Shown here in pieces: positions 1,829 to 19,302 of a stretch of DNA of 64,000 bases (positions within the stretch are counted from its first letter, which is position 1; the number at the start of each line of letters is the position of its first letter). The position numbers were made by a program, and so were the translations under genes. Below the pieces are notes generated by a model. The model searched no databases and had not been told where the DNA came from. It saw only the letters and a program-made list of their open reading frames with translations. The stretch is taken from positions 2,551 to 66,550 of the forward strand of contig PFOM01000004.1 in assembly GCA_002792535.1 (NCBI GenBank). Reading direction: 5' to 3'. This DNA is from Candidatus Peregrinibacteria bacterium CG_4_10_14_0_2_um_filter_38_24. Its GTDB lineage: Bacteria > Patescibacteriota > Gracilibacteria > UBA1369 > LOWO2-01-FULL-3.

Positions 1829-1868
1829 AGGATGTATAATTGCGGTGGTAAAAAATAAAAATTTAGAA

Positions 1869-3284
1869 ATGACCAAATTTGAAAAACCAAAAGTGGTTGA
1901 AGTGGATAAAAAGCTAGGTCCTTCTAAGGTAAAAGGGTCTGAAGAGGAGAAATTTGATATTGAGCAGGGGGTAAGGGGAGTGTTAAAAGGGCTTGAGGCT
2001 GGGCTTGGGAATAAGTTGATTACCGGTTTGGATACTGAGGAATATAACCGAGTTTTTTTTGGTGATTTGGTGGATTTTCAAGCGGATCCAAAGCGTTTTG
2101 CGAAAATGTCTTCGCGTTTTGTTGAGCATCTTGCTCGGGCTATGAAAGAGGCAAAAGAAGTGAAATCTCCTGTCAGTTATGAAGCTGAGTTTGTTAACAT
2201 GGAGTTGAAGAATAGTGCAGGTCTTTTTGCTAGAATTACTCTTAAAAAGTTTTCTTCTGATGATGAAGAGTTTAAGGCTTTTGAAGAAGAAATTCAGAAA
2301 ATATCCGTAGGTTATATTTTATTGAGTTCAAAGGCTCAGCTTGATATTGCAATTAAATTAAAGGAGAAATGGAACTTTAGTGGTGATGCGGAGCTTTTGC
2401 GAAAAATGATAATTATTAATATAAAAAGGTCCGGTGATCTTAAGTATATGCAAATGGCGGTGAAAGATCCGAAATTTATGGCGGAATATCAGAAACTTAT
2501 TGAAAGTGGTGTGGATCCCGAAGAGGCTTTTGAAAAAGCTATGAAAAAAAGTTCGCTAAAATTACAGAAAAGTTTCAAAAAATATTCTAAACAATGGCAA
2601 AATTCTAGTGTTTCTGATGTTTTTTCTGAGAATACGGGAACAGTCGCCGGGGTAAAAGTTGAAGTGCCCTCCGGTGATGAGGTGAAGGCGGCTGTTGTGG
2701 CATATCAGCAAGAAGGTGTCCATATAGATATTCCATCTGGTGGTAATGTTGGCGTTGTGCATATCGGAAATGAAATTGAGAGAGATGCCGCAATATATTA
2801 TGTTGATGGTTCTCCGAAACTTTTTGTTTATGATCGTAATGCTGATGAAGGAATTCGTGGGCCAATTGATTCGTCAAAAGCGAAGGAAGCGTTTTTTGAG
2901 ATGAGTATTGATGATTATTTTAGTAAAAAATTTCGTGAATTTGCTACTTTTGATTCTGAAAAAGATCCGACAAAAGTGGCGGATAATAAATTGTTGAAGG
3001 TCGCTCATGCGTTTTTCCCCGATTCAGCATTGAATAAAATTGCGCTTGATGTTGGGACTAAACAGCTTTTGGATAATTTTGCTTATCTTTGTGTTACTGT
3101 TGACGAGAAGTATTTGTCGATGAGTAAAAAAATTGATTTTTTTGATCGTATCTCGAATGATCCATTGGCTTCGTATGCCGCTAAAAAGATTTTGTCGGAA
3201 AGGGATTTTGTAAAAGAACGAGGGAATTTGAGTGTTTTTGAGGGAGAATTGAAAGTAAAGAGGCCTCAGTTCTTTGAGGAGTGA
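1869..3284 (+). CDS. Hypothetical protein (~471 aa)
   Basis: Long ORF with normal codon usage. TATAAT at 1835-1840 favours ATG 1869 over GTG 1845. No family recognised. Confidence 0.8.
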   Translation: MTKFEKPKVVEVDKKLGPSKVKGSEEEKFDIEQGVRGVLKGLEAGLGNKLITGLDTEEYNRVFFGDLVDFQADPKRFAKMSSRFVEHLARAMKEAKEVKSPVSYEAEFVNMELKNSAGLFARITLKKFSSDDEEFKAFEEEIQKISVGYILLSSKAQLDIAIKLKEKWNFSGDAELLRKMIIINIKRSGDLKYMQMAVKDPKFMAEYQKLIESGVDPEEAFEKAMKKSSLKLQKSFKKYSKQWQNSSVSDVFSENTGTVAGVKVEVPSGDEVKAAVVAYQQEGVHIDIPSGGNVGVVHIGNEIERDAAIYYVDGSPKLFVYDRNADEGIRGPIDSSKAKEAFFEMSIDDYFSKKFREFATFDSEKDPTKVADNKLLKVAHAFFPDSALNKIALDVGTKQLLDNFAYLCVTVDEKYLSMSKKIDFFDRISNDPLASYAAKKILSERDFVKERGNLSVFEGELKVKRPQFFEE

Positions 3285-3423: not shown

Positions 3424-3908
3424 ATATTTATAAGTTTCTTGAAGATAATAAAATTGCATATCAGAGGTTTGATCATTCGGCTGTTTTTACTTGTGAGGAA
3501 GCTGATTTATTGGATATTGAAATTCCTGGAGTTAGTACGAAAAATCTTTTTTTGCGGGATAAAAATGGTAAGCGTCATTTTCTTGTTACGGTGGATAAAG
3601 ATAAACAAGTGGATTTTGGAAAATTGAAAGAAATCCTTGAGGTCTCGAAGTTGAGTTTTGGTTCGCCTGAGCGTTTACAGAAGTATCTTGGTTTAACTCC
3701 CGGATCTGTTACTTTACTTGGAGTTATCAATGATTCTGATGGGGTTGTTGAAGTAATTATTGATGAAGAAATTTGGGGGCAAACTTTGCAATGTCATCCT
3801 TTGATAAATACTGCTTCACTTGCTATTGAGCATGAAGAAATAAAGAGGTTTTTGGATGCGGCACGACATTCTCCGAGGATTATTTCTATTTCTGCTAAAA
3901 TTGTTTAA
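3417..3908 (+). CDS. YbaK/prolyl-tRNA synthetase-associated domain protein (ProXp-ala/PrdX-like trans-editing deacylase)
   Basis: HSAVFTCEEA, TKNLFLRDK, LGLTPGSVT, CHPLINTAS. Confidence 0.9.
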   Translation: MLDIYKFLEDNKIAYQRFDHSAVFTCEEADLLDIEIPGVSTKNLFLRDKNGKRHFLVTVDKDKQVDFGKLKEILEVSKLSFGSPERLQKYLGLTPGSVTLLGVINDSDGVVEVIIDEEIWGQTLQCHPLINTASLAIEHEEIKRFLDAARHSPRIISISAKIV

Positions 3909-6277
3909 TCTTCTTTTTCCTGTAAATAAAATGGTAAGAGCCATGGTGGTTTTAATTCGGGGATTTTTTTGATGAGATATAAATCATTTAAATTTATTTT
4001 TCCGTGATATAAATCTCGTAAATCTCCACCTTTTTCTATGAAAGCTAGAATCATTTTATTTCCTTTGAAGTAGACAAGTTCGCGAGTGAATCCTCCTGGT
4101 TTTGAGGTGTCTATAAGTCCACGTTTTGTTTTTAGTGCGACACGTTGAGCTCTGGCTCTGTTAAAACCAAGGCTTATTAATGCGTTGACGGTTTCGACGA
4201 AACTTCCTTTCAGGGCTTTATCAACGCCTATTGTTGATGAGGCTGGCCAATAAGTTTTTGGGATTGGATGTGACTGAACATTGTTTTGGTTGTATATGGC
4301 GAGGCCTTCTTCTGTAAATAAATAATCGGCTAAACCTCTTTGGAAAATTTTATAAGGTTGAGTTTTTCCGTTTACAGAGGTCAAAACGTGAGTTTCAATT
4401 TCATGAGCTATTGTGCCCTTGAGTCTTTGGGATGAAAAAGTTGCATCTTCGCGAATTGATATGTTTTTTTCTTTTCCTGCAATTACGTCGGAGATTAATT
4501 CTTTTTGAATAGAAACACTCCATTGTTTTAGGCCATATTTAGCGAGGATTTCTTCAAATTTGGCTTTTGCCTGAAGTGCATTTATCATAGGGCCTTCTTC
4601 CGGAAAAGTAGTCGGCATTGTTTTTACAAATGCTTCGGCTTCTTCTACCAATAGTGGATCAGGGGCTCCATAAAGTTCTATGGATTTTTCAACAAATTGA
4701 TCTGTTCCTCTGGCTTGTAATAAATTTATTTTGCGTATGATTTCGTCGGCTTTCTTTTTCCAAAGTATTCCGATAATTGAATCGGGGAATGCCATGTTTT
4801 GGATTGTAGTGATGAATTCTTCTGCATTAAAATTTAATGGTTTGTAAATAAATTGAGGATTGTAATTCGTGTCGGCAAGAATTTGTTTTTCCTCCTCTTC
4901 TAAATTTATTGGCTTCAAATAATGTAATAAATGTATTTGTTTGTCGATATCCATCAGGCTTGATTCAAGTGCAAGGCTTTTGGTGTTTTTGGATGGTTTT
5001 TCGGTGAAGATAGAAGGCCATGAAATTTTTGGAATTTTGACGGCATTGCGGAGTATGGTTTTTTTATTCGGATCAATTAATATGTCTTTTAAATCACGCA
5101 TGCCAAGTTGGACGGGAGTGTCTTCTCCCAAGTCTCCGATATCGACGACTGTGACAATTCTTTGGGTTTTGATGTTAAGTTTGCATTTTGTGTCGGGTTC
5201 TATCCCTAATAATCGCGCTAAATGTTGATCTACCATTGTTTTTTCTTTCGAGAAGTCTACACGTGCATTTACCTTTTGTTTCCCTTTTTCTCCAATGATT
5301 TCAATAGTGTCGTTTACTCCGATAATTGGTTTTTCTTTTTGTTCGGTAGGTCTTTCGGCGCGTTGTCCGAAAAGATCGAGGGCGATTCGTACGCCTTTTT
5401 CTGGCGTTTGGACTTTGATTCCTTCAATACGTTCGAGTCGGCGATGTAGAGGGGCCATGTTTGCGATTTGTACTGAAAGTCCGGCGCGTGCGTTGATTTC
5501 GAGAAGGACTGGCCCTGATGTTTTATCTAAACTTATGTCTATTGCGGCAAAACCAAGATTACTTATTTGTTGAACGCGAGAGGCGATTAATAGGATTTTT
5601 TCCCAATGAGGAATTTTTAAACCTGTGATGTCTCCGTATCCCGGAACTTCCGAAATTCTTTTGCCGTATTGTGTTGTGTATGTAATTTCTCCTTTGGAAA
5701 TGTCGATTCCTGCGGCAATTCCTCCTAAATGCACGTTGGCTTTTCCGTCGGATTTTTCTGTTGGTAGTCGCAACATTGCCATTACCGGGATGAGGTTGTG
5801 AACGATTACACGGATGTCTGGAAGACCTTTGTAGGCGATTGAAGCAAATGGTTCCGGTGCTATAAGTATTTGCTCGAAGAGTGCAATGTCTGAAATTTCA
5901 TTCATGGAATAACGGCTGTCCAGTATGTCTTCAATATGATCTTTTAAAGTTTCTTGGGAAATACTTTCGTCGTTTGATTTGATGAATTTTTTCCCTTTTC
6001 TATCTTTTATAATTATTATTCCTTCTCCGCCGTATCCGGAATCTGGTTTCACTACAAATGATTGAGGAAGTGCGTTCCAATTAAAATTTTTTAATTCTTT
6101 TTTTTCGGAAATAGATGCATATAATTTTGCTGTTGGAATGCCGCGGGCCGCGAGAAAGTGTTTTGTTTTTAGCTTACTGTCTGCCATCAATACGGCCTTT
6201 TTTTGATTGTAGGCTTTTATGTAAAGTAGATTTCTAGCGTTGATGCCGAGAAGGCCTGGATTGTGAAAAAACCACAT
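3905..6277 (-). CDS. Fusion: alpha-L-glutamate-ligase-like ATP-grasp + degenerate retropepsin-like domain + DUF1704 (QEGLA/MATCAP-like) HExxxH metallocarboxypeptidase
   Basis: N-term LGINARN, VVKPDSGYGGEGI, GLPDIRVI, GKANVHLGG, LEINARAGL; middle PIIG..ARVDFS..LGMRDL..ILIDP; C-term HEIETH (4388-4405), TEEGLA (EEGLA at 4298-4312), RALKTKRG-like segment, GGFTRELVYFKG. Confidence 0.85.
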   Translation of the reverse strand: MWFFHNPGLLGINARNLLYIKAYNQKKAVLMADSKLKTKHFLAARGIPTAKLYASISEKKELKNFNWNALPQSFVVKPDSGYGGEGIIIIKDRKGKKFIKSNDESISQETLKDHIEDILDSRYSMNEISDIALFEQILIAPEPFASIAYKGLPDIRVIVHNLIPVMAMLRLPTEKSDGKANVHLGGIAAGIDISKGEITYTTQYGKRISEVPGYGDITGLKIPHWEKILLIASRVQQISNLGFAAIDISLDKTSGPVLLEINARAGLSVQIANMAPLHRRLERIEGIKVQTPEKGVRIALDLFGQRAERPTEQKEKPIIGVNDTIEIIGEKGKQKVNARVDFSKEKTMVDQHLARLLGIEPDTKCKLNIKTQRIVTVVDIGDLGEDTPVQLGMRDLKDILIDPNKKTILRNAVKIPKISWPSIFTEKPSKNTKSLALESSLMDIDKQIHLLHYLKPINLEEEEKQILADTNYNPQFIYKPLNFNAEEFITTIQNMAFPDSIIGILWKKKADEIIRKINLLQARGTDQFVEKSIELYGAPDPLLVEEAEAFVKTMPTTFPEEGPMINALQAKAKFEEILAKYGLKQWSVSIQKELISDVIAGKEKNISIREDATFSSQRLKGTIAHEIETHVLTSVNGKTQPYKIFQRGLADYLFTEEGLAIYNQNNVQSHPIPKTYWPASSTIGVDKALKGSFVETVNALISLGFNRARAQRVALKTKRGLIDTSKPGGFTRELVYFKGNKMILAFIEKGGDLRDLYHGKINLNDLYLIKKIPELKPPWLLPFYLQEKED

Positions 6278-6295
6278 GATGTAAGAGTTAGTTTA

Positions 6296-7807
6296 TTATT
6301 CTTCTTCAGCATGTTTCATGACTTCTCGGAAACGGAATATTTCTGTTAGTCTTAGGCCAGTCCAACGGCTGAGGAGGACATTGATGAGAAGTAAAAGGAG
6401 GATTAGTTCGGGATAGGCCAACATTAGTGTTTGCATGTATTCCCATTCGACCAATTCATAACATAATATTGAGACTGCCATTGTTTCTGTCATGAGAAAT
6501 ATTGTTGCTTTGTATCCACGACCACTCAATGCGTTCGCGAATTTTTCGGCCATTGTTGTCATAACTAAGATTGGGAAAACTGCAATTGATGCGATTTGAC
6601 TAACATTTAGCCACGCTCCAAAAGCCAGTAAGCCTAAAATTACTAAAGTGGAAGAACATAAAATAATTGCTAGACGTGGATGATGTAATAGATGGAAGCG
6701 ATCAAGAACTTTTCTAAATAGTGCTCCAGTGATGATGATTACCGCTAGGATAGCCAAACCTGCATTTATGCCTAAGGCAAGGAAAGATAAGGTTATGATT
6801 GATGTGGAATAAAGTCCAAATGTTCCGAATCCGATGACTTGTTTGATGAATGTAATTAGCGTGACAATGAGTGGTAACATAAGAAGTAGGACGATTGTAT
6901 TTGAGGGGATTCCTTTTGTAATCATGTAATTTACCAAAGAAGAAATTGCGTTCCATAAGCCTATATGACTTGATTCTGCATTGATGATGCTATATTGAGC
7001 TCCGCCTTTTGATAAAGATATTATGAAGTCTTTTGTCGAGGCTGAGGCGATTAGATTTCTTAATTGATGTTGTCTTGTTAGAATGATTTGCTGAGGTTCA
7101 ATAATGTTGAAATTGCTCTGCATGATTCTTCCGAGCGTTGTGAGGTTTTTTTCACTAATTACGATGAGGCTTTTCCCTTTTAAAATTTCTTTGATTTCAG
7201 GGCGTTCTTGGACAAGTCTTGTGAGGGAGTTGATTCCGCTACCACGGCTGGTCCATAGGATGATATTTTCTGCACTACCAAGAATGTTTTTTTCTTCGAC
7301 TGTTTTTTTTGCTAAGGCTTCTTCGGAAATGAAAGCGGTAGTGCTGTCATAACTATCTATAACTTTAATGAAAATGCCGTTGTCTTTTGCTTCTTCAACT
7401 AGGCTTTGAATGGTTTCCTTTTGATCCGAAATATCTGTCAAAAGAGCCATTAATTTGCTGTAAACGAAAACGTTATGAATTACTATTGTATCCTTATCTC
7501 TTTGTTTCATTGTTAATGTGACTTGGTAGGAGCCTGTGTCCTTAAAACTGTGAACAACTTCTTCGCCTTTTTCGAAAGGTGATTTATCTCCAAAGTCCCA
7601 AGAATATGTTACCGGTTCGTCTGGATAGAGAAGTTGTGGAGAGGATATGTCAAAAATAATATTTTTGCCTGCCTCTACTATGTCGTTTGCGGCTATAGTT
7701 ACGCTAAATTGTGGATCGGATAAACTTACTCCTTGTGCAAGTTGTGCCGTCATTACTATGGATAAAATAAATCCAATTAGTAGTATTTTAATTATTTGCT
7801 TAATCAT
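6296..7807 (-). CDS. PKD domain + 7TM (7TM_transglut-like) membrane protein
   Basis: Signal peptide, TYSWDFGD..VVHSF..TGSYQVTL (PKD), C-terminal TM block LLMLP..KQVIGFGTFG..PRLA..FPILVMT..AEK..WTGLRLTEIFRF; ends AEEE. ATG 7807 preferred to TTG 7843. Confidence 0.85.
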   Translation of the reverse strand: MIKQIIKILLIGFILSIVMTAQLAQGVSLSDPQFSVTIAANDIVEAGKNIIFDISSPQLLYPDEPVTYSWDFGDKSPFEKGEEVVHSFKDTGSYQVTLTMKQRDKDTIVIHNVFVYSKLMALLTDISDQKETIQSLVEEAKDNGIFIKVIDSYDSTTAFISEEALAKKTVEEKNILGSAENIILWTSRGSGINSLTRLVQERPEIKEILKGKSLIVISEKNLTTLGRIMQSNFNIIEPQQIILTRQHQLRNLIASASTKDFIISLSKGGAQYSIINAESSHIGLWNAISSLVNYMITKGIPSNTIVLLLMLPLIVTLITFIKQVIGFGTFGLYSTSIITLSFLALGINAGLAILAVIIITGALFRKVLDRFHLLHHPRLAIILCSSTLVILGLLAFGAWLNVSQIASIAVFPILVMTTMAEKFANALSGRGYKATIFLMTETMAVSILCYELVEWEYMQTLMLAYPELILLLLLINVLLSRWTGLRLTEIFRFREVMKHAEEE

Positions 7808-7981
7808 GTTTGAAATTGTATCATTTTTCGTTTGTGGTATCAAGAATGATGTTGCTTTTGGTTTGAGGGGTGTGGCTGTTGAACAAGAATTTTGAGATAG
7901 GTCAATTAGAAATTTGAAATAATTTTTTCAAAAAAGCTGTAATGGTTTAGATAAAGCCGGATTGTCTAATTCACCAGAAAT

Positions 7982-12069: not shown

Positions 12070-13335
12070 TTATAAATTGTAAACAGGGGGTACTTCTTTG
12101 ATGAAGTTTTGGGCGAATGTGTATGTGTATGCGCCTTGGAATGGCATTACGATGATGTCTCCTTCTTTTGGTGTGTTCTTTGTGTAAAGGTAATATCCCC
12201 AAATGTCGTCTGGTGTGCAGAGTGAGCCATAAGTTACGAATGGAATTTCATTTTTTTGATCGAATTGTGAAAGGTTGAATAGGGGAACATAGTGAAAAAA
12301 TTGATATCTTTCCCATCCGATCATGTTGTTGCTGCCGTCTGTTATGCCAAGTCTTGGATTTTTGATGTCGATGATTTTGAAAATCATGTGCATTGCGCTG
12401 TGACAAATATATCGACCAGGTTCGGCATAAAGTGAAATATTTGGAAGAAGTGGAAGAATTTCTTTTTTATAAATCTTAACAATTTCTTCCGCGAATTTTT
12501 CTATTGGATCGACTTTTATTGGGATGTATCTTTTGTTTGGTTTTGTTTCAAGGATGTCTTTTTCGTCTGGTGTGTCCATACTGTTTTCGTCTGGATTCCA
12601 TGGGTGGATTCCCTCAAATGGTTGCGGATAAAAGCCTCCTCCCATGTCGATGTATTCAAATTGTTTTCGTTCGTTTTCTGTAAAATTTTCTTTGAGATAT
12701 TCAGCTAGTGTCTTGAATGTTTTTATATATTTTTCTGGAGTCTTGTTGTAGCTAATGTGAAAATGAATTCCGCAAAAATTTATTGATTTATATTTTTTTG
12801 CAGTGTCAAAAAATGTTTTTAAATTTTCTAGTGATGTGCCGAATTTTGTCCATCCAGTTTGCGCTTTTGTATATATTCTTAGGCCACATTGCACTTTTAC
12901 TTTTTTCTTTTCTGCCATTTTCGCTAGTAATATAAGTTCGCGAATACTTTCTAAATTTACTGTGATTTTATTGTGATATTTTAAAATTAATTCGAAATCT
13001 TTTTCTGTTTTTCCAGGGCCTGTGTAAATTATTTTTTTTGCGCCGGCTTTTATCGCGAGTTTGAGTTCGCGCTGACTAGAGACGTCTAAGCCTTCTTTCT
13101 CTTGTACGACAGTCTTTAAAAGTCCTGGATAATAATTACTTTTTGTCGCGAAAAATATGTTTATATTTAGGCCTTCTTTCTTGAATGCGTTTTTGAAAGT
13201 TTGTATGTTTTTACGAGTTTCTTCTTTGTCGTAAATATAAAGTGGAGTCCCGATTTTGTTGGCGATATCTAAAAATCGTGGTCGTAAGGTTTTAACTTTT
13301 TGAAATTTTTGTTTGAAATTTGATGATTTTTCCAA
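12070..13335 (-). CDS. PLP-dependent fold-III decarboxylase (LysA/ornithine decarboxylase family)
   Basis: GTPLYIYD, FATKSN (PLP Lys), TKFG, HFH, DMGGGF, EPGR, GSLCTPDD, GAY. Confidence 0.9.
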   Translation of the reverse strand: MEKSSNFKQKFQKVKTLRPRFLDIANKIGTPLYIYDKEETRKNIQTFKNAFKKEGLNINIFFATKSNYYPGLLKTVVQEKEGLDVSSQRELKLAIKAGAKKIIYTGPGKTEKDFELILKYHNKITVNLESIRELILLAKMAEKKKVKVQCGLRIYTKAQTGWTKFGTSLENLKTFFDTAKKYKSINFCGIHFHISYNKTPEKYIKTFKTLAEYLKENFTENERKQFEYIDMGGGFYPQPFEGIHPWNPDENSMDTPDEKDILETKPNKRYIPIKVDPIEKFAEEIVKIYKKEILPLLPNISLYAEPGRYICHSAMHMIFKIIDIKNPRLGITDGSNNMIGWERYQFFHYVPLFNLSQFDQKNEIPFVTYGSLCTPDDIWGYYLYTKNTPKEGDIIVMPFQGAYTYTFAQNFIKEVPPVYNL

Positions 13336-13372
13336 TTTTTTGTTTCTATTATTTATATGAGTATTATAATGA

Positions 13373-14317
13373 ATGAGCCTTTATATTAAAAGATTATTTG
13401 AATTTATGAATGTAAAATTTGTTGAAGAGAGAGGGGAGTGTAAAAAATTATGGGAAGAATTTTCTCCGCATTTGTCTATCTTTGATGAATGGGATTTTCG
13501 TTTTTCGTTTTTGAATTTTTTCGAGTATAAGCTTCATTTTGTTCTTCTAGAAGATGATAATCAGAATGTTGGTCTTCTCCCTCTTTGGTATATTTCTGAG
13601 CAAAATAAATATTTTTGGTTTGGAGATATTGGTGATGGTTTTAATTGGCAGGAGGAAAATTCTTTTTGGGTTAAGGATAAAAAATATTTAAAATTTTTGA
13701 TGGAGTCTTGTCCTAAATCTACTGTTTTAAATAGTTTGAAAGAAAATGCTTGTGATTTTTTGATTGGTGATGAAAGACTTTCGAGGTCTAATCCTAAGCA
13801 ACTTTTGATTATGGATGAAATTCATTCTGTTGATGATTTTTTGATGACTGTAGATAAAAAACTTCGACAAAATTTGAGAAGGGATAAGAAAAGAGTTGAG
13901 GATTTAAATCCGGAAATTGTGTTTGATCATTTTGAAGATTTTGAGGCTCTTATGAAATTTAATTCTGATAAGTTTTTAGATTCGCCATTTAAGGATAATC
14001 GCATGGTGAAGACCTTTAACCATGTTATCGAAAATGGAAAAAGTGGTGCAAAATATAAAAGTAGAATGATTTCTGTGAAAGTTAACGGTGAAATTGTCGG
14101 AGTTGATTTGAACTTTATTTGTGGGGACATCTATTACACTATGCTTTGTGGCAATGATACGGAGAAATGTCCAGGAATTGGGCATTTTCTTACAATGCTT
14201 GATATGCAGGATGCGCTTTCGATGGGGGTAAAGTTAATAGATTTCGCTGAGAGTGACGAAGGTTCGTATAAAGAAAAATTGTTTAAAACCCTCCCTCAAT
14301 TTGTTATTACTATTTAG
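13373..14317 (+). CDS. GNAT-fold acyltransferase (Acetyltransf_6/FemAB-like)
   Basis: VGLLPL, FLMTVDKKLRQNLRRD, PGIGHFL..D..DA...G...IDF, SYKEKL. Confidence 0.75.
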   Translation: MSLYIKRLFEFMNVKFVEERGECKKLWEEFSPHLSIFDEWDFRFSFLNFFEYKLHFVLLEDDNQNVGLLPLWYISEQNKYFWFGDIGDGFNWQEENSFWVKDKKYLKFLMESCPKSTVLNSLKENACDFLIGDERLSRSNPKQLLIMDEIHSVDDFLMTVDKKLRQNLRRDKKRVEDLNPEIVFDHFEDFEALMKFNSDKFLDSPFKDNRMVKTFNHVIENGKSGAKYKSRMISVKVNGEIVGVDLNFICGDIYYTMLCGNDTEKCPGIGHFLTMLDMQDALSMGVKLIDFAESDEGSYKEKLFKTLPQFVITI

Positions 14318-15608
14318 TGTTCCCAAGTAGTAATTTTTCTATTCCTGATAGGATTTTATTTTTGTCTTTTATCAAAAAAGTTTCGTGTTCTATTTTTACA
14401 ATCGGTTGATGAGTGATTGCCATGCCATAGTCATCTTTTTGGCTTAAAACCTTGTTTTTTTCAAGTTTGTGATCTATGAAAACAACGTTTTTTTTCTCAA
14501 AATCTTTCATCTTGTTCGACAAATATTTCAGAGTTTCATTTTTTATTTCGTACATTCCGACTTTGTGAACTCTTTCAGTCTTTTTTCCGCTCAATTGATT
14601 TTCGAAAAAATCTAAATCCAATGTGCATCCTTCGTAAGTTGTGTTTGGAATAAATGGTTTATTTGCTGAAAGTTTTTTCCTGAAAAGGCCTTTTATGAAT
14701 TCTTCATTAAAGTCATATCCATGTATTAGCTCTTTTCTCTGCGATATTTGGATGCTCGACAGTGAAAGTCTTGGATTACATTCAATAACGAAAACATCAT
14801 TGTCTCTTATGATTACATCGATGCTGGCTGTTCCGTAAAATTTTAATTTCTGTAAAACTTTACCTATTGATGCAAGAGTTTTATTCAGATTTTTTATTCC
14901 TTCTTTTTTGAATTCTGAAGTTTTCATCCATTGAATTCCGAGATATTTGTTTGTATTTTTGCTGTCTAGCATTATTGCTTGTCCTCTTATGCTAGAGAAA
15001 ATCATCTCTTTTTTGCTCAATACCAATGTTACTCCGATTGGAATTCCTTTTATGAATTCACGATATAAAAATGGAAATTTTATTTTTTTATCTTTGAGTA
15101 GTTCTAGTATTCCTTTTTTATTTTTTACTAAAAATGTTCCTTGAGATCCATGACTGTATGGGACTTGAACTACTCCCGGAAATTTTGTGATTTTATCTAT
15201 GTCTTTTTCTTTTTTTGGAATTACGCTATTTGGAGCTGAAATTTTATTTTTTTTCAAAAGTTTGTCGAAAAATATTTTATTTTCGAGTTTTTTTTGAAGG
15301 TTCCAAGTAGGGGATAATAATTTTATTTTATTTTTCTTTGCCCATGAGTCTAAATGGCTTGAGGAAATGCTGTTTAGGTAGTATGCGTTTATCTTTTTTT
15401 CTCTTAATTTTTTTAGGAAATCTGGTCTTTTTATTAATTCATTTTCAGAAAGTGAACTTTCTTTTGAATCTATGTCTATAATTTTATTTTTCGGAAGATT
15501 TGTGACGAAAAAATCTCGTCCCGGATTGTTTTTTAGCGTGATGAAATAATACTTATCTCTGTTTTGAGAGAATAAGATTTCATAGCTTTGGGTCGAAACT
15601 ATATTCAT
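14310..15608 (-). CDS. ATP-grasp domain protein
   Basis: LENKIFFDKLL, FPGVVQVPYSHGSQGTFLV, REFIKG, IDVII, VIECNPRL. Confidence 0.85.
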   Translation of the reverse strand: MNIVSTQSYEILFSQNRDKYYFITLKNNPGRDFFVTNLPKNKIIDIDSKESSLSENELIKRPDFLKKLREKKINAYYLNSISSSHLDSWAKKNKIKLLSPTWNLQKKLENKIFFDKLLKKNKISAPNSVIPKKEKDIDKITKFPGVVQVPYSHGSQGTFLVKNKKGILELLKDKKIKFPFLYREFIKGIPIGVTLVLSKKEMIFSSIRGQAIMLDSKNTNKYLGIQWMKTSEFKKEGIKNLNKTLASIGKVLQKLKFYGTASIDVIIRDNDVFVIECNPRLSLSSIQISQRKELIHGYDFNEEFIKGLFRKKLSANKPFIPNTTYEGCTLDLDFFENQLSGKKTERVHKVGMYEIKNETLKYLSNKMKDFEKKNVVFIDHKLEKNKVLSQKDDYGMAITHQPIVKIEHETFLIKDKNKILSGIEKLLLGNTK

Positions 15609-15610
15609 TT

Positions 15611-16900
15611 TTATTCGATTATGATTTCTATTTTTTTTAAGGCTTCATCGGTGTTTTTTTCTGCTTCTTCTGGGGTTTCTCCGCTTCCGGAAATATATCC
15701 TACGTAGTCAAATTTTTCTGGAGGGAGCGCTACTTTATCTCCAACATCCAACAAAATTTCGATATTGAAATTGTTAGGATCATGCTGTAATTCATCAGGA
15801 ATGTATAGCTTTTTGATAGTTCCTTTGTTTTTTGGGATGATATATTTCAAGACTTTGTGTCCTTTATTTTTAACCTCATAAATCCTTTTTTTTCCTAGAG
15901 CAATCATTATTGATTCGAACATTAAATTGTATCCTGTGAGATTTAGCATGTCGTCGTGAAGATTATCGCCGCCAATACGGCACCCTATTTCTACTATTTT
16001 TGGACCTTGTGATGTGAATATTATCTCAGTGTGTGTTGCTGAATTTTTTATTTTCATTGCTTTAATTGTAAGCTCTATTAATTTTTTAATTTTGGCTTGT
16101 TCTTCATCTGAACAGACATATGGTAGACGTGCGGCCAATTGTACAAAATATGGCGGATCCATTCTTACTTGATCTTCTGTTCCAAGGATGTGAGATTCTC
16201 CATTTTGGACTAGTGCATCTACGCTTATTTCATGTCCATCCATAAACTCTTCGACCAAATAATCTGTAACCATATCTACGTGCCCGTCTACTCCGATTAG
16301 GTCCATTTCCTCTTCATTAAAGGCAAAAACGTCACTGTCGATTGCTTTTTCTTTTAGGAATTTTATAGAGTTTTCGTAATTTTCTTTTAGAGTTTTTATG
16401 TCTTCTTCGTCTTTAATCATGAATGTTCCATAGCTTGCATTTCCTCCGACAGGTTTTGCAACACATGGAGTTTTTATCTCCCTTATGCCATTAATCAATT
16501 CTTCATAATTTTTACAAAGTTTGAATTTTGGGATTGGAACATTCCCTTTTTCAAGACATTTTCGCATGTGATATTTGCTTCTACAGTTGAATGCGACGAT
16601 TGGTTCATTGCCGATACATCCGTATTGTTTTGCCAAAAGTGCGACTAGTGGAGTAAGCCATTCTGAAGTTTTTATTGTTATTGCGTCAAATTTTTCAGGC
16701 TTATTTTTCATGTATTCAAGTGTCTCTTTTGTTTTCCTAAGGTCATATCGGAAATGTTTTTCAAAAACTTCAGGTTTTGGTTCAAAAGATCCATCACTTA
16801 AGAGATATAATTTGTGTCCGAGTTTTTTTGTGTCATAAAAGGCTTGATATACGGCATCTGAGTATTCTGAGCCCGTGACTATCAAAATATTTTTAGCCAT
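15611..16900 (-). CDS. ATP-grasp L-amino-acid-ligase-like protein
   Basis: RSKYHMR, VAKPVGGNASYG, LVEEFMDGHEISVD, HTEI, IVEIGCRIGGD, LAL-type C-terminal domain. ATG 16900 overlaps the upstream stop (TAATG). Confidence 0.88.
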   Translation of the reverse strand: MAKNILIVTGSEYSDAVYQAFYDTKKLGHKLYLLSDGSFEPKPEVFEKHFRYDLRKTKETLEYMKNKPEKFDAITIKTSEWLTPLVALLAKQYGCIGNEPIVAFNCRSKYHMRKCLEKGNVPIPKFKLCKNYEELINGIREIKTPCVAKPVGGNASYGTFMIKDEEDIKTLKENYENSIKFLKEKAIDSDVFAFNEEEMDLIGVDGHVDMVTDYLVEEFMDGHEISVDALVQNGESHILGTEDQVRMDPPYFVQLAARLPYVCSDEEQAKIKKLIELTIKAMKIKNSATHTEIIFTSQGPKIVEIGCRIGGDNLHDDMLNLTGYNLMFESIMIALGKKRIYEVKNKGHKVLKYIIPKNKGTIKKLYIPDELQHDPNNFNIEILLDVGDKVALPPEKFDYVGYISGSGETPEEAEKNTDEALKKIEIIIE

Positions 16901-19302
16901 TAGAATTGTAGGTGATAGAACGGTGGTTTGTCTTTGTACCTTTGTATTGCCATCCAAAGTATTTTTTCTATCAAATCTTCATAGCTGTATCCTGCGAGTT
17001 TTGCGGAGATGGCTATGAAATTATCTGTTTCAAGTGGTGGATTTGGATTTAATTCAATCACATATGGGTTTCCTTCTTTGTCGACTCTAAATTCTATTTT
17101 GCCATAATCGTGACAATCAAAAATATTATAAACATCGAGAGCCATTTCGCTTATTAATGTTTCGAGTTTTTTGTTTATTTTTGCAGGTTTTTCAACTTTG
17201 ATTGTATCTAATATGTATTTGTTTTTTCCATCCCAAAGATCTGATGAATAGATGTGCCAGTGATTTTTTTGTACTTTATCAAAAGTAGAGCGAATCAATG
17301 GAAGAACTTCGACATCTTCTTCATTTCCGATGAGGGATACGTCAATTTCTGTTCCTTCGATGTATTCTTCTATAAGTGCCGGTCTCTTGAAATCTTCAAT
17401 GATGATTCGTAATTGTTTTTTTAATTCTTTTTCATTTGTAACGACAGATTGATTGTCGATTCCGAAGAAATTATCAGAATTTGCAGGTTTTACTATCAAT
17501 GGATATTCGAGTTCATCGCTTATTTTATCGTCCATGCTTTCTACATAATCCCAATCTGGAGTTGGAATATCGTGATATTCAAGAATTTTTTTGACTTTTA
17601 TCTTGTCCAAAGAAAGAGATAATGTTCCTGGATTTGAGCCTGTGTAAGGCAATTGTAGCATGTCGAATAATGCGGCTGAGTGCGATTTTAATAGTGGAGA
17701 ATTGTAGATCGCCTCACATAAATTCATTACGAAATCCAGATTTGCTCGTTGAATTTTTTCGATAGGTAATGCCGATTCTCCTACGTCGAATAGGCTTACG
17801 TTATAGCCTTTTACTTGAAGTATATTTTTTATGTTTTCTCCTGTGAAAAACTTTTTTGCGTTTTCGCTGTAGATTGTAATTGTTGAATTTGCGACGATTC
17901 CAATATGTAATTTTTTTATTTTGTTTTTATCTACGATTCTAAGTTTTTCTATTTTTGAGGCCTTGATGATTTGTTCACGAAGAATTGAAGCGGAGGATAG
18001 GGAAGACTGTCTTGTTGTTTTTCCGAGTGATGAATCTTTATGGAAGCGTGTTACGTTTATTTCTATTTTACTAATGACTCTGTTCATTAAAGTTTCCGCT
18101 TCTTGATATGTGCGTCCTTTTACAACTGCCCATCCTGCGTTCTCAAATCCTTCTGGTGGAACTAAGATCGCATCTCCTACATTTTTTGTTATTATTAATT
18201 GAAGAACGTTTTTTATTTGTTGTGCTTCCTTTATTCCTTCAATATTTGTGATAATTCCTGAATGATTCGGGATGAAATAGCGGCAAATTACGCATCCTTT
18301 TGCCTGAGTGTTTTTGTAATTTGTGGTTACGCCGCATGCGATTCTTATTCCTATTTCAACCATATCCGTGTCCCAAACATTTTTAACGTTTGTGTAAATG
18401 TCATCTCCTCCCATTCTGGATCCGACCTCGACTATTTTTGTGCCTGTGGAGGTCATTTTTATTTCTATGTGAGCAAGACTGTTTTGTACACCCAGTGCAA
18501 TTAACGCTGATTCTGCTAGTTTTATTGCTTCAGCTTCTATTGAGTCTTCTAGTCTTGCCGGAGCGATATCTCCGTATTCTATGAAGTATGGTGGTTTTAT
18601 AGGTTGTTTTTCATTTATTCCTATGACGTGTGGAATTCCGTATTGAGAAAAACATTCTAAACTGATTTCCATTCCATCCATGTATTCTTCATACAAAAAA
18701 GTTCCGTTGTTGTATTTAAAAATTGGATTGAATTTTTCGTTACAGTTCTTTTGTAAATAATCTAAAGTGCTTTTTGCTTCTTCTTCGTTGTTTACTAATA
18801 TTACGAATTCACTATCTGCTCCCCATGCAGGTTTCATTACTGCAGGGAAACCTATTTCTTCCATTCCCTTTTTTAAATCGTTTTTGGTTTTTATCATTTG
18901 AAAAAGTGGACTGCCGAGATTTGTTTCGGCAAGTCTTTTTCTCATTTCGTGTTTGTTTCTTGTTCTGATTGCAGTTTCGTAGCTATTTCCGGGGAGTTTA
19001 AATTCTTCGCATACCTTAGCCAAAAGAGGAACGTCGTCTTCCCAAAAAGTTATTGCTCCGTCGAATTTTATTTCAGGATTGTTTTTTTGAAAAAGTTTTA
19101 ATTTTTCGATTACTTCTTTGTGGTTGTAGGTGTCAGCTTCTATGAAATATGTAATTATTTTTTTGTTTGTATCTAATTTTTGATTAACCAAAATGATGTT
19201 TAGGCCTAAGCTTTTTGCTTTTTCAAGTGTGAATTTTTTTTTCTTACCACCTGAATTTATGAAGATTATATTTTTGCCTAGCAAGTCTTTGTTTGGGGGC
19301 AT
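16900..19302 (-). CDS. Tandem ATP-grasp fusion: L-amino-acid-ligase-like + D-Ala-D-Ala-ligase-like domains
   Basis: N-half: RNKHEMR, VMKPAWGADSE, YEEYMDGMEISLE, VEVGSRMGGD. C-half: PYTGS, LDKIKVKKIL, YPLIVKP, LIEEYIEG, CHDYGKIEFR, IELNPNP. Confidence 0.88.
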   Translation of the reverse strand: MPPNKDLLGKNIIFINSGGKKKKFTLEKAKSLGLNIILVNQKLDTNKKIITYFIEADTYNHKEVIEKLKLFQKNNPEIKFDGAITFWEDDVPLLAKVCEEFKLPGNSYETAIRTRNKHEMRKRLAETNLGSPLFQMIKTKNDLKKGMEEIGFPAVMKPAWGADSEFVILVNNEEEAKSTLDYLQKNCNEKFNPIFKYNNGTFLYEEYMDGMEISLECFSQYGIPHVIGINEKQPIKPPYFIEYGDIAPARLEDSIEAEAIKLAESALIALGVQNSLAHIEIKMTSTGTKIVEVGSRMGGDDIYTNVKNVWDTDMVEIGIRIACGVTTNYKNTQAKGCVICRYFIPNHSGIITNIEGIKEAQQIKNVLQLIITKNVGDAILVPPEGFENAGWAVVKGRTYQEAETLMNRVISKIEINVTRFHKDSSLGKTTRQSSLSSASILREQIIKASKIEKLRIVDKNKIKKLHIGIVANSTITIYSENAKKFFTGENIKNILQVKGYNVSLFDVGESALPIEKIQRANLDFVMNLCEAIYNSPLLKSHSAALFDMLQLPYTGSNPGTLSLSLDKIKVKKILEYHDIPTPDWDYVESMDDKISDELEYPLIVKPANSDNFFGIDNQSVVTNEKELKKQLRIIIEDFKRPALIEEYIEGTEIDVSLIGNEEDVEVLPLIRSTFDKVQKNHWHIYSSDLWDGKNKYILDTIKVEKPAKINKKLETLISEMALDVYNIFDCHDYGKIEFRVDKEGNPYVIELNPNPPLETDNFIAISAKLAGYSYEDLIEKILWMAIQRYKDKPPFYHLQF

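Follow-up and report, generated by a model that had tools for sequence, protein, structure and literature searches.

A predicted fusion of an ATP-grasp ligase, a retropepsin-like domain and a MATCAP-type carboxypeptidase, encoded beside an RloB-like membrane protein ending in -EE in a Peregrinibacteria genome

The stretch of DNA analyzed here, called the window below, comprises 64,000 nucleotides (nt) of contig PFOM01000004.1 (positions 2,551 to 66,550 of the forward strand; GenBank assembly GCA_002792535.1) from Candidatus Peregrinibacteria bacterium CG_4_10_14_0_2_um_filter_38_24, whose genome measures 1.10 Mb and is 98.5% complete. Near its beginning lie two genes of the minus strand (Table 1). 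The first encodes an RloB-like membrane protein, hereafter the partner, and the second a protein in which an ATP-grasp ligase module, a retropepsin-like domain and a carboxypeptidase-like module of the MATCAP (DUF1704) family follow one another. The enzyme gene at 3905..6277 is a single unbroken open reading frame (ORF) of 790 amino acids (aa), and the plus-strand reading of the same segment is full of stops. A preliminary description of this DNA had proposed that 3905-6277 encodes one polypeptide combining a ligase with a MATCAP-type peptidase; this was borne out by the single ORF and by its matches to PF14397 and PF08014, and each motif listed there was found at its position, His625 included.

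Table 1. Features of the two-gene cassette, in positions of the window.
Feature	Position	Strand	Remarks
Three-module enzyme gene	3905..6277	-	790 aa; begins 18 nt past the stop of the partner gene
ATP-grasp ligase module, RloC/RimK-like (predicted)	5363..6235	-	aa ~15-305; PF14397, TIGR02291
Retropepsin-like (RloA/RimB-type) domain (predicted)	5063..5329	-	aa ~317-405; fold match
Degenerate catalytic motif D341-F-S	5249..5257	-	at the position of the retropepsin D-T/S-G
MATCAP/DUF1704 gluzincin carboxypeptidase-like module (predicted)	3917..4987	-	aa ~431-787; PF08014; MATCAP fold
HEIETH (H625, E626, H630), zinc-binding and catalytic motif	4388..4405	-	aa 625-630; invariant in 54/54
TEEGLA, third zinc ligand by analogy	4298..4315	-	aa 655-660
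Partner gene, RloB-like membrane protein	6296..7843	-	PF14402, PKD; likely start ATG 7807, 503 aa
Codons GAA GAA GAA, C-terminal -EEE of the partner, followed by TAA	6299..6307	-	
Sigma-70-like promoter match TTGATA-17-TACAAT with TG	7815..7843	-	consensus match only, upstream of ATG 7807

The fusion is genuine and no assembly artefact, because the same architecture recurs in database homologues, in the genomes of relatives and among the contigs of three further sequencing runs. A database search with the enzyme returned 1231 proteins at E ≤0.001, of which 120 were listed; PF14397 and PF08014 were both present in 120/120, in proteins of 676-812 aa. These homologues carry names such as 'DUF1704 domain-containing protein' (Peregrinibacteria, Patescibacteria), and the fusion is widespread in databases, uncharacterised rather than unseen. 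The survey of relatives suggested in the preliminary description was run on 61 genomes of the window's order: the MATCAP family was detected in 49 of them, and open frames of 712-879 aa hold 43 of its 50 strongest matches. Contigs of the groundwater metagenome runs X6, X7 and X8, which were not flagged as possible sources, span the boundaries between the domains and the one with the upstream gene, showing 0-1 differences. Finally, the catalytic residues of the ligase and MATCAP modules are invariant in an alignment of 54 full-length homologues. Taken against the idea of an assembly or gene-calling artefact, or of a decaying gene, the common architecture, the long frames, the independent contigs across every junction and the invariant residues leave it next to no chance. 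The only oddity on its side comes from genome G383, in which the gene (L085; contig C4, 2761-5155) appears broken within the MATCAP module, leaving two overlapping ORFs (578 and 299 aa); the break could stem from a frameshift or a sequencing error, or mark a decaying copy.

The N-terminal module matches ATPgrasp_ST (PF14397) over aa 15-285 with an E-value of 2e-61 and 208.1 bits, well above the gathering cut-off of 31.4. Its best-scoring NCBIfam model is TIGR02291, 'alpha-L-glutamate ligase-like' (aa 6-292), yet the 255.8 bits obtained remain below the curated equivalog cut-off of 314.2; likewise, the RimK family model TIGR00768 gave 51.9 bits against a cut-off of 143.4. The ligase motifs KPDSGYGGEGI (from K77), DIR (154-156) and EINAR (260-264) were found, and K77, E260, N262 and R264 are invariant in the 54 aligned homologues. 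The AlphaFold2 model of the full-length enzyme reached a mean predicted local distance difference test score (pLDDT) of 85.5; when it was submitted to Foldseek, the best solved ATP-grasp structure was RimK (5zct_A, E 3e-8), and both fold and profile place the ligase nearest to RimK, LysX and ArgX. A separate true RimK of 300 aa is encoded elsewhere in the same genome (contig C23, L017; E 4e-49). The ribosomal protein S6 of this genome (G000 contig C31:6863-7540, L045) bears a K/E-rich C-terminal extension of ~130 aa whose end reads ...DPDITL; as it has no C-terminal Glu, the usual acceptor end of RimK is missing. An archaeal ATP-grasp with 36% identity to the window's ligase was also noted in the plasmid CP007061.1 of Halobacterium sp. 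DL1 (5164-6918, L044), where an unannotated ORF of 584 aa consists of an N-terminal extension of ~280 aa followed by the ATP-grasp.

The C-terminal module matches MATCAP (PF08014) over aa 469-774 (E 1.5e-47, 162.8 bits, gathering cut-off 27). The curated model TIGR02421 ('QEGLA') aligns with aa 441-786, its 178.4 bits lying under the equivalog cut-off of 338.65. Residues H625, E626, H630, E657, G658, L659 and A660 are invariant across the 54 full-length homologues. By sequence, the only solved relatives were chains of human MATCAP/KIAA0895L (7z5g_A, E 3e-7); the alignment to human MATCAP spans HEIxTH, TEEGLA and KRG..DTS..G.F, with HEIETH opposite HEIGTH and TEEGLA identical. The fold comparison gave MATCAP 7z6s_C at E 8.2e-12, with a TM-score of 0.69 on the target, 349 columns and 21% identity, the module being modelled at pLDDT >90 over most of its length. 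Thus the comparison of an AlphaFold model with MATCAP and RimK, which had been proposed as a check, retrieved both, and the membership of the C-terminal domain in DUF1704 was upheld by profile and by fold. Family, intact motifs and fold together predict a zinc carboxypeptidase. Stand-alone MATCAP genes also exist in the order: one of the three examined, a gene of 379 aa (L048, G050:C13, 4766-8497), adjoins two paralogous ATP-grasp genes of the L-amino-acid-ligase type, and so pairs this peptidase family with another kind of ligase, and the two others do not. A second, divergent MATCAP-like gene encoding 435-575 aa was observed in a family of systems from the phylum (f61), a few kb from the triple fusion (L070 5344-6804, L071 6040-7494, L080 7448-9175 and L082 112-1419).

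The preliminary description recognised two enzyme domains, which stand, and left the segment between them as a linker, thereby overlooking a third domain. In the full-length model the two enzymes are separated by a small beta domain (aa ~317-405), modelled with confidence at pLDDT ~88-91, after which aa 411-430 are disordered; folded alone with AlphaFold2, the beta domain reached a pLDDT of 91.4 and a predicted TM-score (pTM) of 0.80. Among 48,161 chains, its best structural match was Pseudomonas aeruginosa RloA2 (9g59_B, Z 11.5, root-mean-square deviation 2.7, 89 aa), and the second was Legionella Lpg0085/DUF785 (2pma_B, Z 11.3), the alignments covering 89-94 of 101 residues; lower scores were obtained for Ddi1 (Z 9.2) and retroviral proteases (~8). 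Foldseek with the domain likewise returned Ddi1 (4.4e-5) and RloA (9g58_B, 1.4e-4). The window's own segment had no match in Pfam or NCBIfam, and a profile of the linker searched against sequences of the PDB found only Ddi1, at E about 1. Its orthologues are more telling: in copies from the same order the segment reads 'AKIDTG', 'AKVDTG' or 'ARMDSG', which is the retropepsin signature, and when 30 orthologous segments were compared with Pfam, 10/30 matched PF13650 and 10/30 PF13975 (named Asp_protease_2 and gag-asp_proteas), and 3/30 matched PF05618. The D[TS]G itself is retained in 1/54 close homologues and in 7/30 order-wide copies. The best folds (RloA2 and DUF785), the DTG signature of the orthologues and the matches to aspartic-protease families in Pfam therefore lead us to assign aa ~317-405 to a predicted retropepsin of the RloA/RimB type, whose active site appears to have been lost in most of this clade. 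A profile search for a stand-alone PF05618 gene in the window's genome, at E up to 1, found none.

The partner protein, for which the database copy has 503 aa, begins with an N-terminal hydrophobic segment and continues with a PKD domain (aa 48-115), an ectodomain of ~200 aa without family match and a seven-transmembrane (7TM) region of the 7TM_transglut family (PF14402, aa 317-508, E 3.7e-29, 102.4 bits against a cut-off of 25). The NCBIfam RloB model NF052267 gave 65.8 bits against a cut-off of 900, and only its profile positions 312-507, that is the 7TM half, were matched. The ectodomain found no usable match in the ESM Atlas. This gene was absent from the preliminary description, and it proved to be the constant companion of the enzyme: the 7TM family was detected in 47/61 genomes of the order, and in 40/47 its gene immediately precedes the enzyme gene, with contig and strand in common. 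Six of the other seven matches lie within ~1.3 kb of contig coordinate 1, and the last one (G053) is truly unlinked. The conserved unit consists of two genes, partner and enzyme, as no other neighbour in the window recurs in 20 loci: CNNM/CorC, YbaK-like, pyrophosphatase and ABC-F genes were not conserved beside the cassette there, nor was any glycosyltransferase or other envelope gene. The defence models of PADLOC assigned no family to either the enzyme or the partner. As for the promoter consensus of Table 1, 16 such sites occur in the region against a shuffle mean of 13.2, which is not evidence of function.

The most constant feature of the partner is its last residues. The window's protein ends in ...FRFREVMKHAEEE, and an -EE end was found in 117/120 database homologues of the partner, 104 of them with EE and 13 with EEE. 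Of the three that lack it, one is apparently truncated, and two (P0360 and P0361) end in -AKLP. Similarly, 18 of 19 orthologues (the window and 18 loci) end in -EE or -EEE. The unlinked partner gene of G053 still ends in -EEEE, the gene following it being on the other strand, and in G040 an -EE end is likewise found on the PKD protein encoded upstream, which has diverged too far to be matched by the 7TM profile. Two proteobacterial RloB homologues end in ...AKARS and ...PGKDK, without -EE. We considered whether the codons serve as a Shine-Dalgarno sequence for the enzyme gene and rejected it: GAA GAA predominates among them, the distance to the following start is anywhere between -1 and 57 nt, and the tail persists in G053. 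Within the window's genome, 4/922 ORFs end in EE, about the number expected by chance. One of these four, on the plus strand at 1845-3284 of the window, encodes 479 aa and has no Pfam match. Other -EE proteins were rejected as substrates on account of this low count, of the fact that the ORF at 1845-3284 has no homologue near the cassette in 20 relatives, and of the S6 end described above. The partner's tail is presumably cytoplasmic, as judged from the seven-helix family name and from a PKD domain placed outside.

The ligase, the 7TM protein and the retropepsin point to a system already known in Pseudomonas. Iyer et al. (2009) are said to have predicted gene neighbourhoods that combine ATP-grasp, 7TM-transglutaminase and retropepsin genes. 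Lormand et al. (2025; PMC11957051) describe the rloABC operon of P. aeruginosa, in which RloA is a secreted retropepsin that cuts runs of at least eight Glu in vitro and RloC a cytoplasmic ATP-grasp protein. According to the same source, a triple rloA mutant shows osmotic, biofilm, antibiotic and shape defects that are suppressed by mutations in rloB or rloC; the Rlo system matters for envelope integrity, biofilm formation and antibiotic tolerance in Pseudomonas, and its substrate is given as unknown (PMC11957051). Since each of the three Rlo parts has a homologue in the cassette, which adds MATCAP to them, we consider it very probably a variant of an Rlo-type system. It has in common with RloABC an ATP-grasp of the TIGR02291/PF14397 type, a PF14402 7TM membrane protein and a retropepsin domain of the RloA/RimB type (DUF785/PF05618), and the order 7TM gene then ligase gene is also that of a canonical operon on a plasmid of Legionella adelaidensis. 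The differences are these. The window's retropepsin is fused to the cytoplasmic ligase, has no signal peptide and reads D-F-S, whereas RloA is separate and secreted; a MATCAP metallopeptidase is fused in; and the partner has a PKD ectodomain and an -EE end, whereas RloB has an inactive transglutaminase ectodomain. An unannotated rloABC-like operon was also seen in NZ_AP026896.1 (L042), a record of 4.94 Mb filed as a plasmid of Aeromonas caviae with 18 annotated features.

A second known pair is RimK/RimB. RimK adds Glu to the C-terminus of RpsF (ribosomal protein S6) and RimB removes them; an ATP-grasp enzyme thus extends a C-terminal -EE with alpha-linked Glu and a retropepsin-like peptidase trims it (PMC11957051, available text). 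The cassette would operate in the same manner, except that the window's ligase falls under the RimK cut-off and that the candidate acceptor is a membrane protein. Thus the statement of the preliminary description that no characterised example is known was right for the fusion itself, which is uncharacterised, and too broad for separate ligase/peptidase pairs, since RimK/RimB and rloABC have been studied. On the domain and fold assignments, the cassette is best described as a candidate-phyla-radiation derivative of Rlo and RimK-RimB systems, in which ligase and peptidases form one polypeptide. The MATCAP module shares its Pfam family with the QEGLA proteins (TIGR02421) that proteobacteria encode as stand-alone genes; these are not fused, and the window's domain scores under their equivalog cut-off. 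A hint that QEGLA peptidases travel with ATP-grasp ligases and osmotic responses comes independently from Photobacterium damselae at 1% NaCl, in which the QEGLA gene RS17025 rose 27.5-fold and the ATP-grasp gene 'GshB' RS17020 38-fold, RimK being induced 52-fold at low salinity (PMC10308900, available text); the two genes appear to be adjacent, as judged from their consecutive locus tags. A full-text literature search returned no paper on DUF1704 with ATP-grasp, on bacterial MATCAP homologues or on the polyglutamylation of membrane proteins, and it found the family studied as erasers of tubulin tails in animals, no study turning up on the function of a bacterial member. As far as this search shows, neither the hidden retropepsin domain nor the -EE tail nor the evolutionary series presented below has been described before.

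Variation across the phylum was followed in a sample of 401 genomes, and 42 further systems were examined with hidden Markov models built from our own alignments. The 7TM family occurs in 129/401 genomes and the MATCAP family in 76/401; 70/76 MATCAP genomes also carry the 7TM family, a raw genome count, as a Fisher test on the co-occurrence ignores relatedness and was not relied on. The three enzyme modules are found together with the 7TM protein whether or not they are fused to one another. Twenty-two of the systems consist of a 7TM gene and a two-domain enzyme, ATP-grasp plus retropepsin; all 22 retain DTG, and a separate MATCAP gene is adjacent or a few kb away in 8 of them. As for the triple fusions among the 42 systems, five (family f61) have DTG without EE, 11 have EE without DTG, and L073 has neither. 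When the window's order is added, the triple fusions fall into 28 with EE and a decayed motif, 3 with EE and DTG, 5 with DTG and no EE, and 2 with neither, the 22 two-domain enzymes all being non-EE with DTG. On the tree of the ligase domain, the EE state requires three changes, including a possible second gain in L074 beside f61 (support 89, not starred). We infer a series in which a two-domain enzyme recruited MATCAP, the two were fused, and the -EE tail appeared together with the decay of the retropepsin, the tree being unrooted and the order of these steps inferred.

These elements can be assembled into a mechanism, to which we give a probability of about 0.5: the ligase would extend an acidic tail, probably the partner's -EE, the MATCAP module would trim it and the decayed retropepsin would bind it. 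The first gene would provide an RloB-like membrane protein with PKD ectodomain, 7TM region and a short cytoplasmic tail ending in -EE(E), and the second a cytoplasmic enzyme made of ATP-grasp ligase, decayed retropepsin and MATCAP zinc carboxypeptidase. Using ATP, the ligase would add glutamates to a C-terminal Glu, for which the partner's own -EE end is the best candidate acceptor, as ribosomal protein S6 is for RimK. The MATCAP module would then take off C-terminal residues singly until the encoded -EE is reached again. It may have taken over the hydrolytic role of the retropepsin, whose domain would stay as a non-catalytic binding or dimerisation module, and the balance between ligase and peptidase would set the length of the tail and so tune the membrane protein, whose Pseudomonas homologue is tied to the envelope and to hypo-osmotic tolerance.

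Several observations suggest the -EE end as acceptor. RimK and LysX/ArgX act on the C-terminal glutamates of proteins (LysW for LysX/ArgX, as stated in the titles of the structures matched by Foldseek); the MATCAP family trims -EEY/-EE tails, and the third domain comes from a polyglutamate-cutting family; and the enzyme's one constant companion has conserved an end of exactly -EE. The preliminary description had proposed that ligase and peptidase oppose each other on acidic C-termini. Its domain assignments hold and a candidate substrate can now be named, with weak support from co-folding: the enzyme together with partner aa 300-503 scored 0.44, the best of three controls 0.00. In the benchmark of this method, the mark was reached by 58/80 solved complexes and by 2/110 mismatched pairs, and scores of at most 0.60 at the mark comprised 7/80 solved complexes and both passing mismatches; the runs agreed in at least 72% of contacts, with partner pLDDT of at least 72. 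Opposed action of the two enzymes on one acidic peptide seems to us rather probable, and the identification of the partner's -EE tail as that acceptor a serious candidate at somewhat less than even odds.

Several results weigh against this mechanism. None of the 22 two-domain systems examined in the phylum has the -EE tail, the 8 with a separate MATCAP gene included, and the 5 triple fusions with intact DTG are also without it; as the tail is not universal, the ligase must elsewhere use another acceptor or none. The association of EE with fusion and with decay has exceptions in L073 (decayed, no EE), L040 (no EE) and L022, L030 and L036 (DTG with EE), and it amounts to ~3 independent contrasts, so that no statistical claim is made for it. 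A crude hydropathy scan of the partner did not resolve seven helices. The co-folding returned no interface, and nothing in it places the tail in the active site. The scores fall under the curated cut-offs of TIGR02291, TIGR02421 and the RimK family alike. Lastly, the secretion of the Pseudomonas peptidase suggests that the product lies outside the cell there (PMC11957051, available text).

The systems without -EE favour another explanation, in which the product of the ligase would be a free polymer, poly-alpha-glutamate or some other poly-amino acid, which the 7TM protein would export or sense and whose length MATCAP would limit in the cytoplasm, the -EE end being a docking or product-mimic motif and not the acceptor. 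Most systems of the phylum are of this kind: all 22 two-domain systems keep ligase, retropepsin and 7TM protein without any -EE. RimK also makes free poly-alpha-glutamate, which the authors raise as a possible substrate of the secreted RloA in the available text of PMC11957051. Moreover, many partner tails of the two-domain systems are rich in K/R and could bind an acidic polymer. This explanation accounts neither for the exact -EE in 117/120 homologues nor for its appearance together with a fused carboxypeptidase, and turnover would need no export in this clade, whose two peptidase modules are both part of a cytoplasmic fusion. We hold it to be unlikely, at something like a one-in-four level. 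The non-EE tails at L050-L069 were often strongly basic (...KKKGA, ...KKSKS, ...RRRKA, ...NRKTKK).

A eukaryotic parallel to the cassette is the modification of tubulin tails. Tubulin tyrosine ligase (TTL) adds a single Tyr to an -EE end. The TTL/TTLL and MATCAP (TMCP1/2) pair resembles the cassette in having an ATP-grasp writer, a MATCAP-family eraser and a tail ending in -EE, with motifs and fold of the eraser in common. It differs in that the two activities here lie in one polypeptide, with 21-22% identity to MATCAP and a ligase that is RimK-like and not TTL-like, and in that the target would be a bacterial membrane protein. On tubulin, the residues that MATCAP-family enzymes strip from the C-terminus of -EEY/-EE tails are Tyr and Glu (PMC10499314, available text), and an encoded -EE would correspond to what MATCAP leaves when it converts the -EEY of alpha-tubulin to -EE (same source). 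The ligase could append to the -EE end one residue other than Glu, such as Tyr or Phe, and MATCAP remove it; the naming of homologues by NCBI as 'tyrosine/phenylalanine carboxypeptidase domain-containing protein' and the HExxxH, TEEGLA and KRG..DTS..G.F motifs common to human MATCAP fit with this. We regard it as improbable, because the ligase is nearest to RimK, LysX and ArgX by fold and profile, no tubulin tyrosine ligase was among the Foldseek matches listed (the best ~32 of 500), and the third domain falls in the RloA/RimB group, in which the characterised members are polyglutamate-cutting enzymes.

A further explanation dispenses with a protein acceptor: the enzyme would build a peptide stem on, or decorate with amino acids, a surface polysaccharide or lipid that the 7TM protein handles, and the substrates of ligase and peptidase might even be unrelated. 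PF14397 is indeed named 'Sugar-transfer associated ATP-grasp'; disruption of a homologous 7TM-transglutaminase gene in strain HM13 changed the production of membrane vesicles (PMC12096838, available text), and the Pseudomonas phenotypes concern the envelope. Nevertheless, the lack of any conserved envelope gene beside the cassette in 20 loci, the action of the MATCAP family and of RimB/RloA on peptide bonds of alpha-linked acidic tails (as the available sources describe it), and the single-polypeptide fusion together with the 70/76 co-occurrence, which argue for a common substrate, make this option doubtful, and we would allow it only a small chance.

Farther along the window, a run of genes at 12070-19302 comprises a pyridoxal-phosphate-dependent decarboxylase (12070-13335), a FemAB-like GNAT protein (13373-14317) and three genes of the ATP-grasp/L-amino-acid-ligase (LAL) type (14310-15608, 15611-16957 and 16900-19302). 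The last of these encodes a double ATP-grasp of 800 aa, LAL with a D-Ala-D-Ala-ligase C-terminus. This run may be a cluster for building a peptide or the cell wall. The GC skew is positive in each 2-kb bin of the whole window (0.04 to 0.38), the genes lying on both strands.

To return to the tail-extension mechanism, its fullest form, for which our support is tentative, is a tail code: a fused writer-eraser would reversibly lengthen and trim the encoded -EE of the 7TM partner, with the dead retropepsin as reader or clamp. If true, prokaryotes would possess a counterpart of tubulin tyrosination/glutamylation, with an eraser homologous to eukaryotic MATCAP, and regulated polyglutamylation would be described for the first time on a membrane protein of bacteria. 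A MATCAP member fused to a RimK/RloC-type ligase and linked to a partner ending in -EE offers a sharply defined and directly testable enzyme-substrate hypothesis. Also, the series from two-domain enzyme to triple fusion constitutes a natural experiment on how one peptidase replaces another. Between a third (7TM family) and a fifth (MATCAP family) of the sampled genomes of a phylum with reduced genomes carry the cassette, approximately, and given this frequency it likely matters for cell surface or osmotic physiology.

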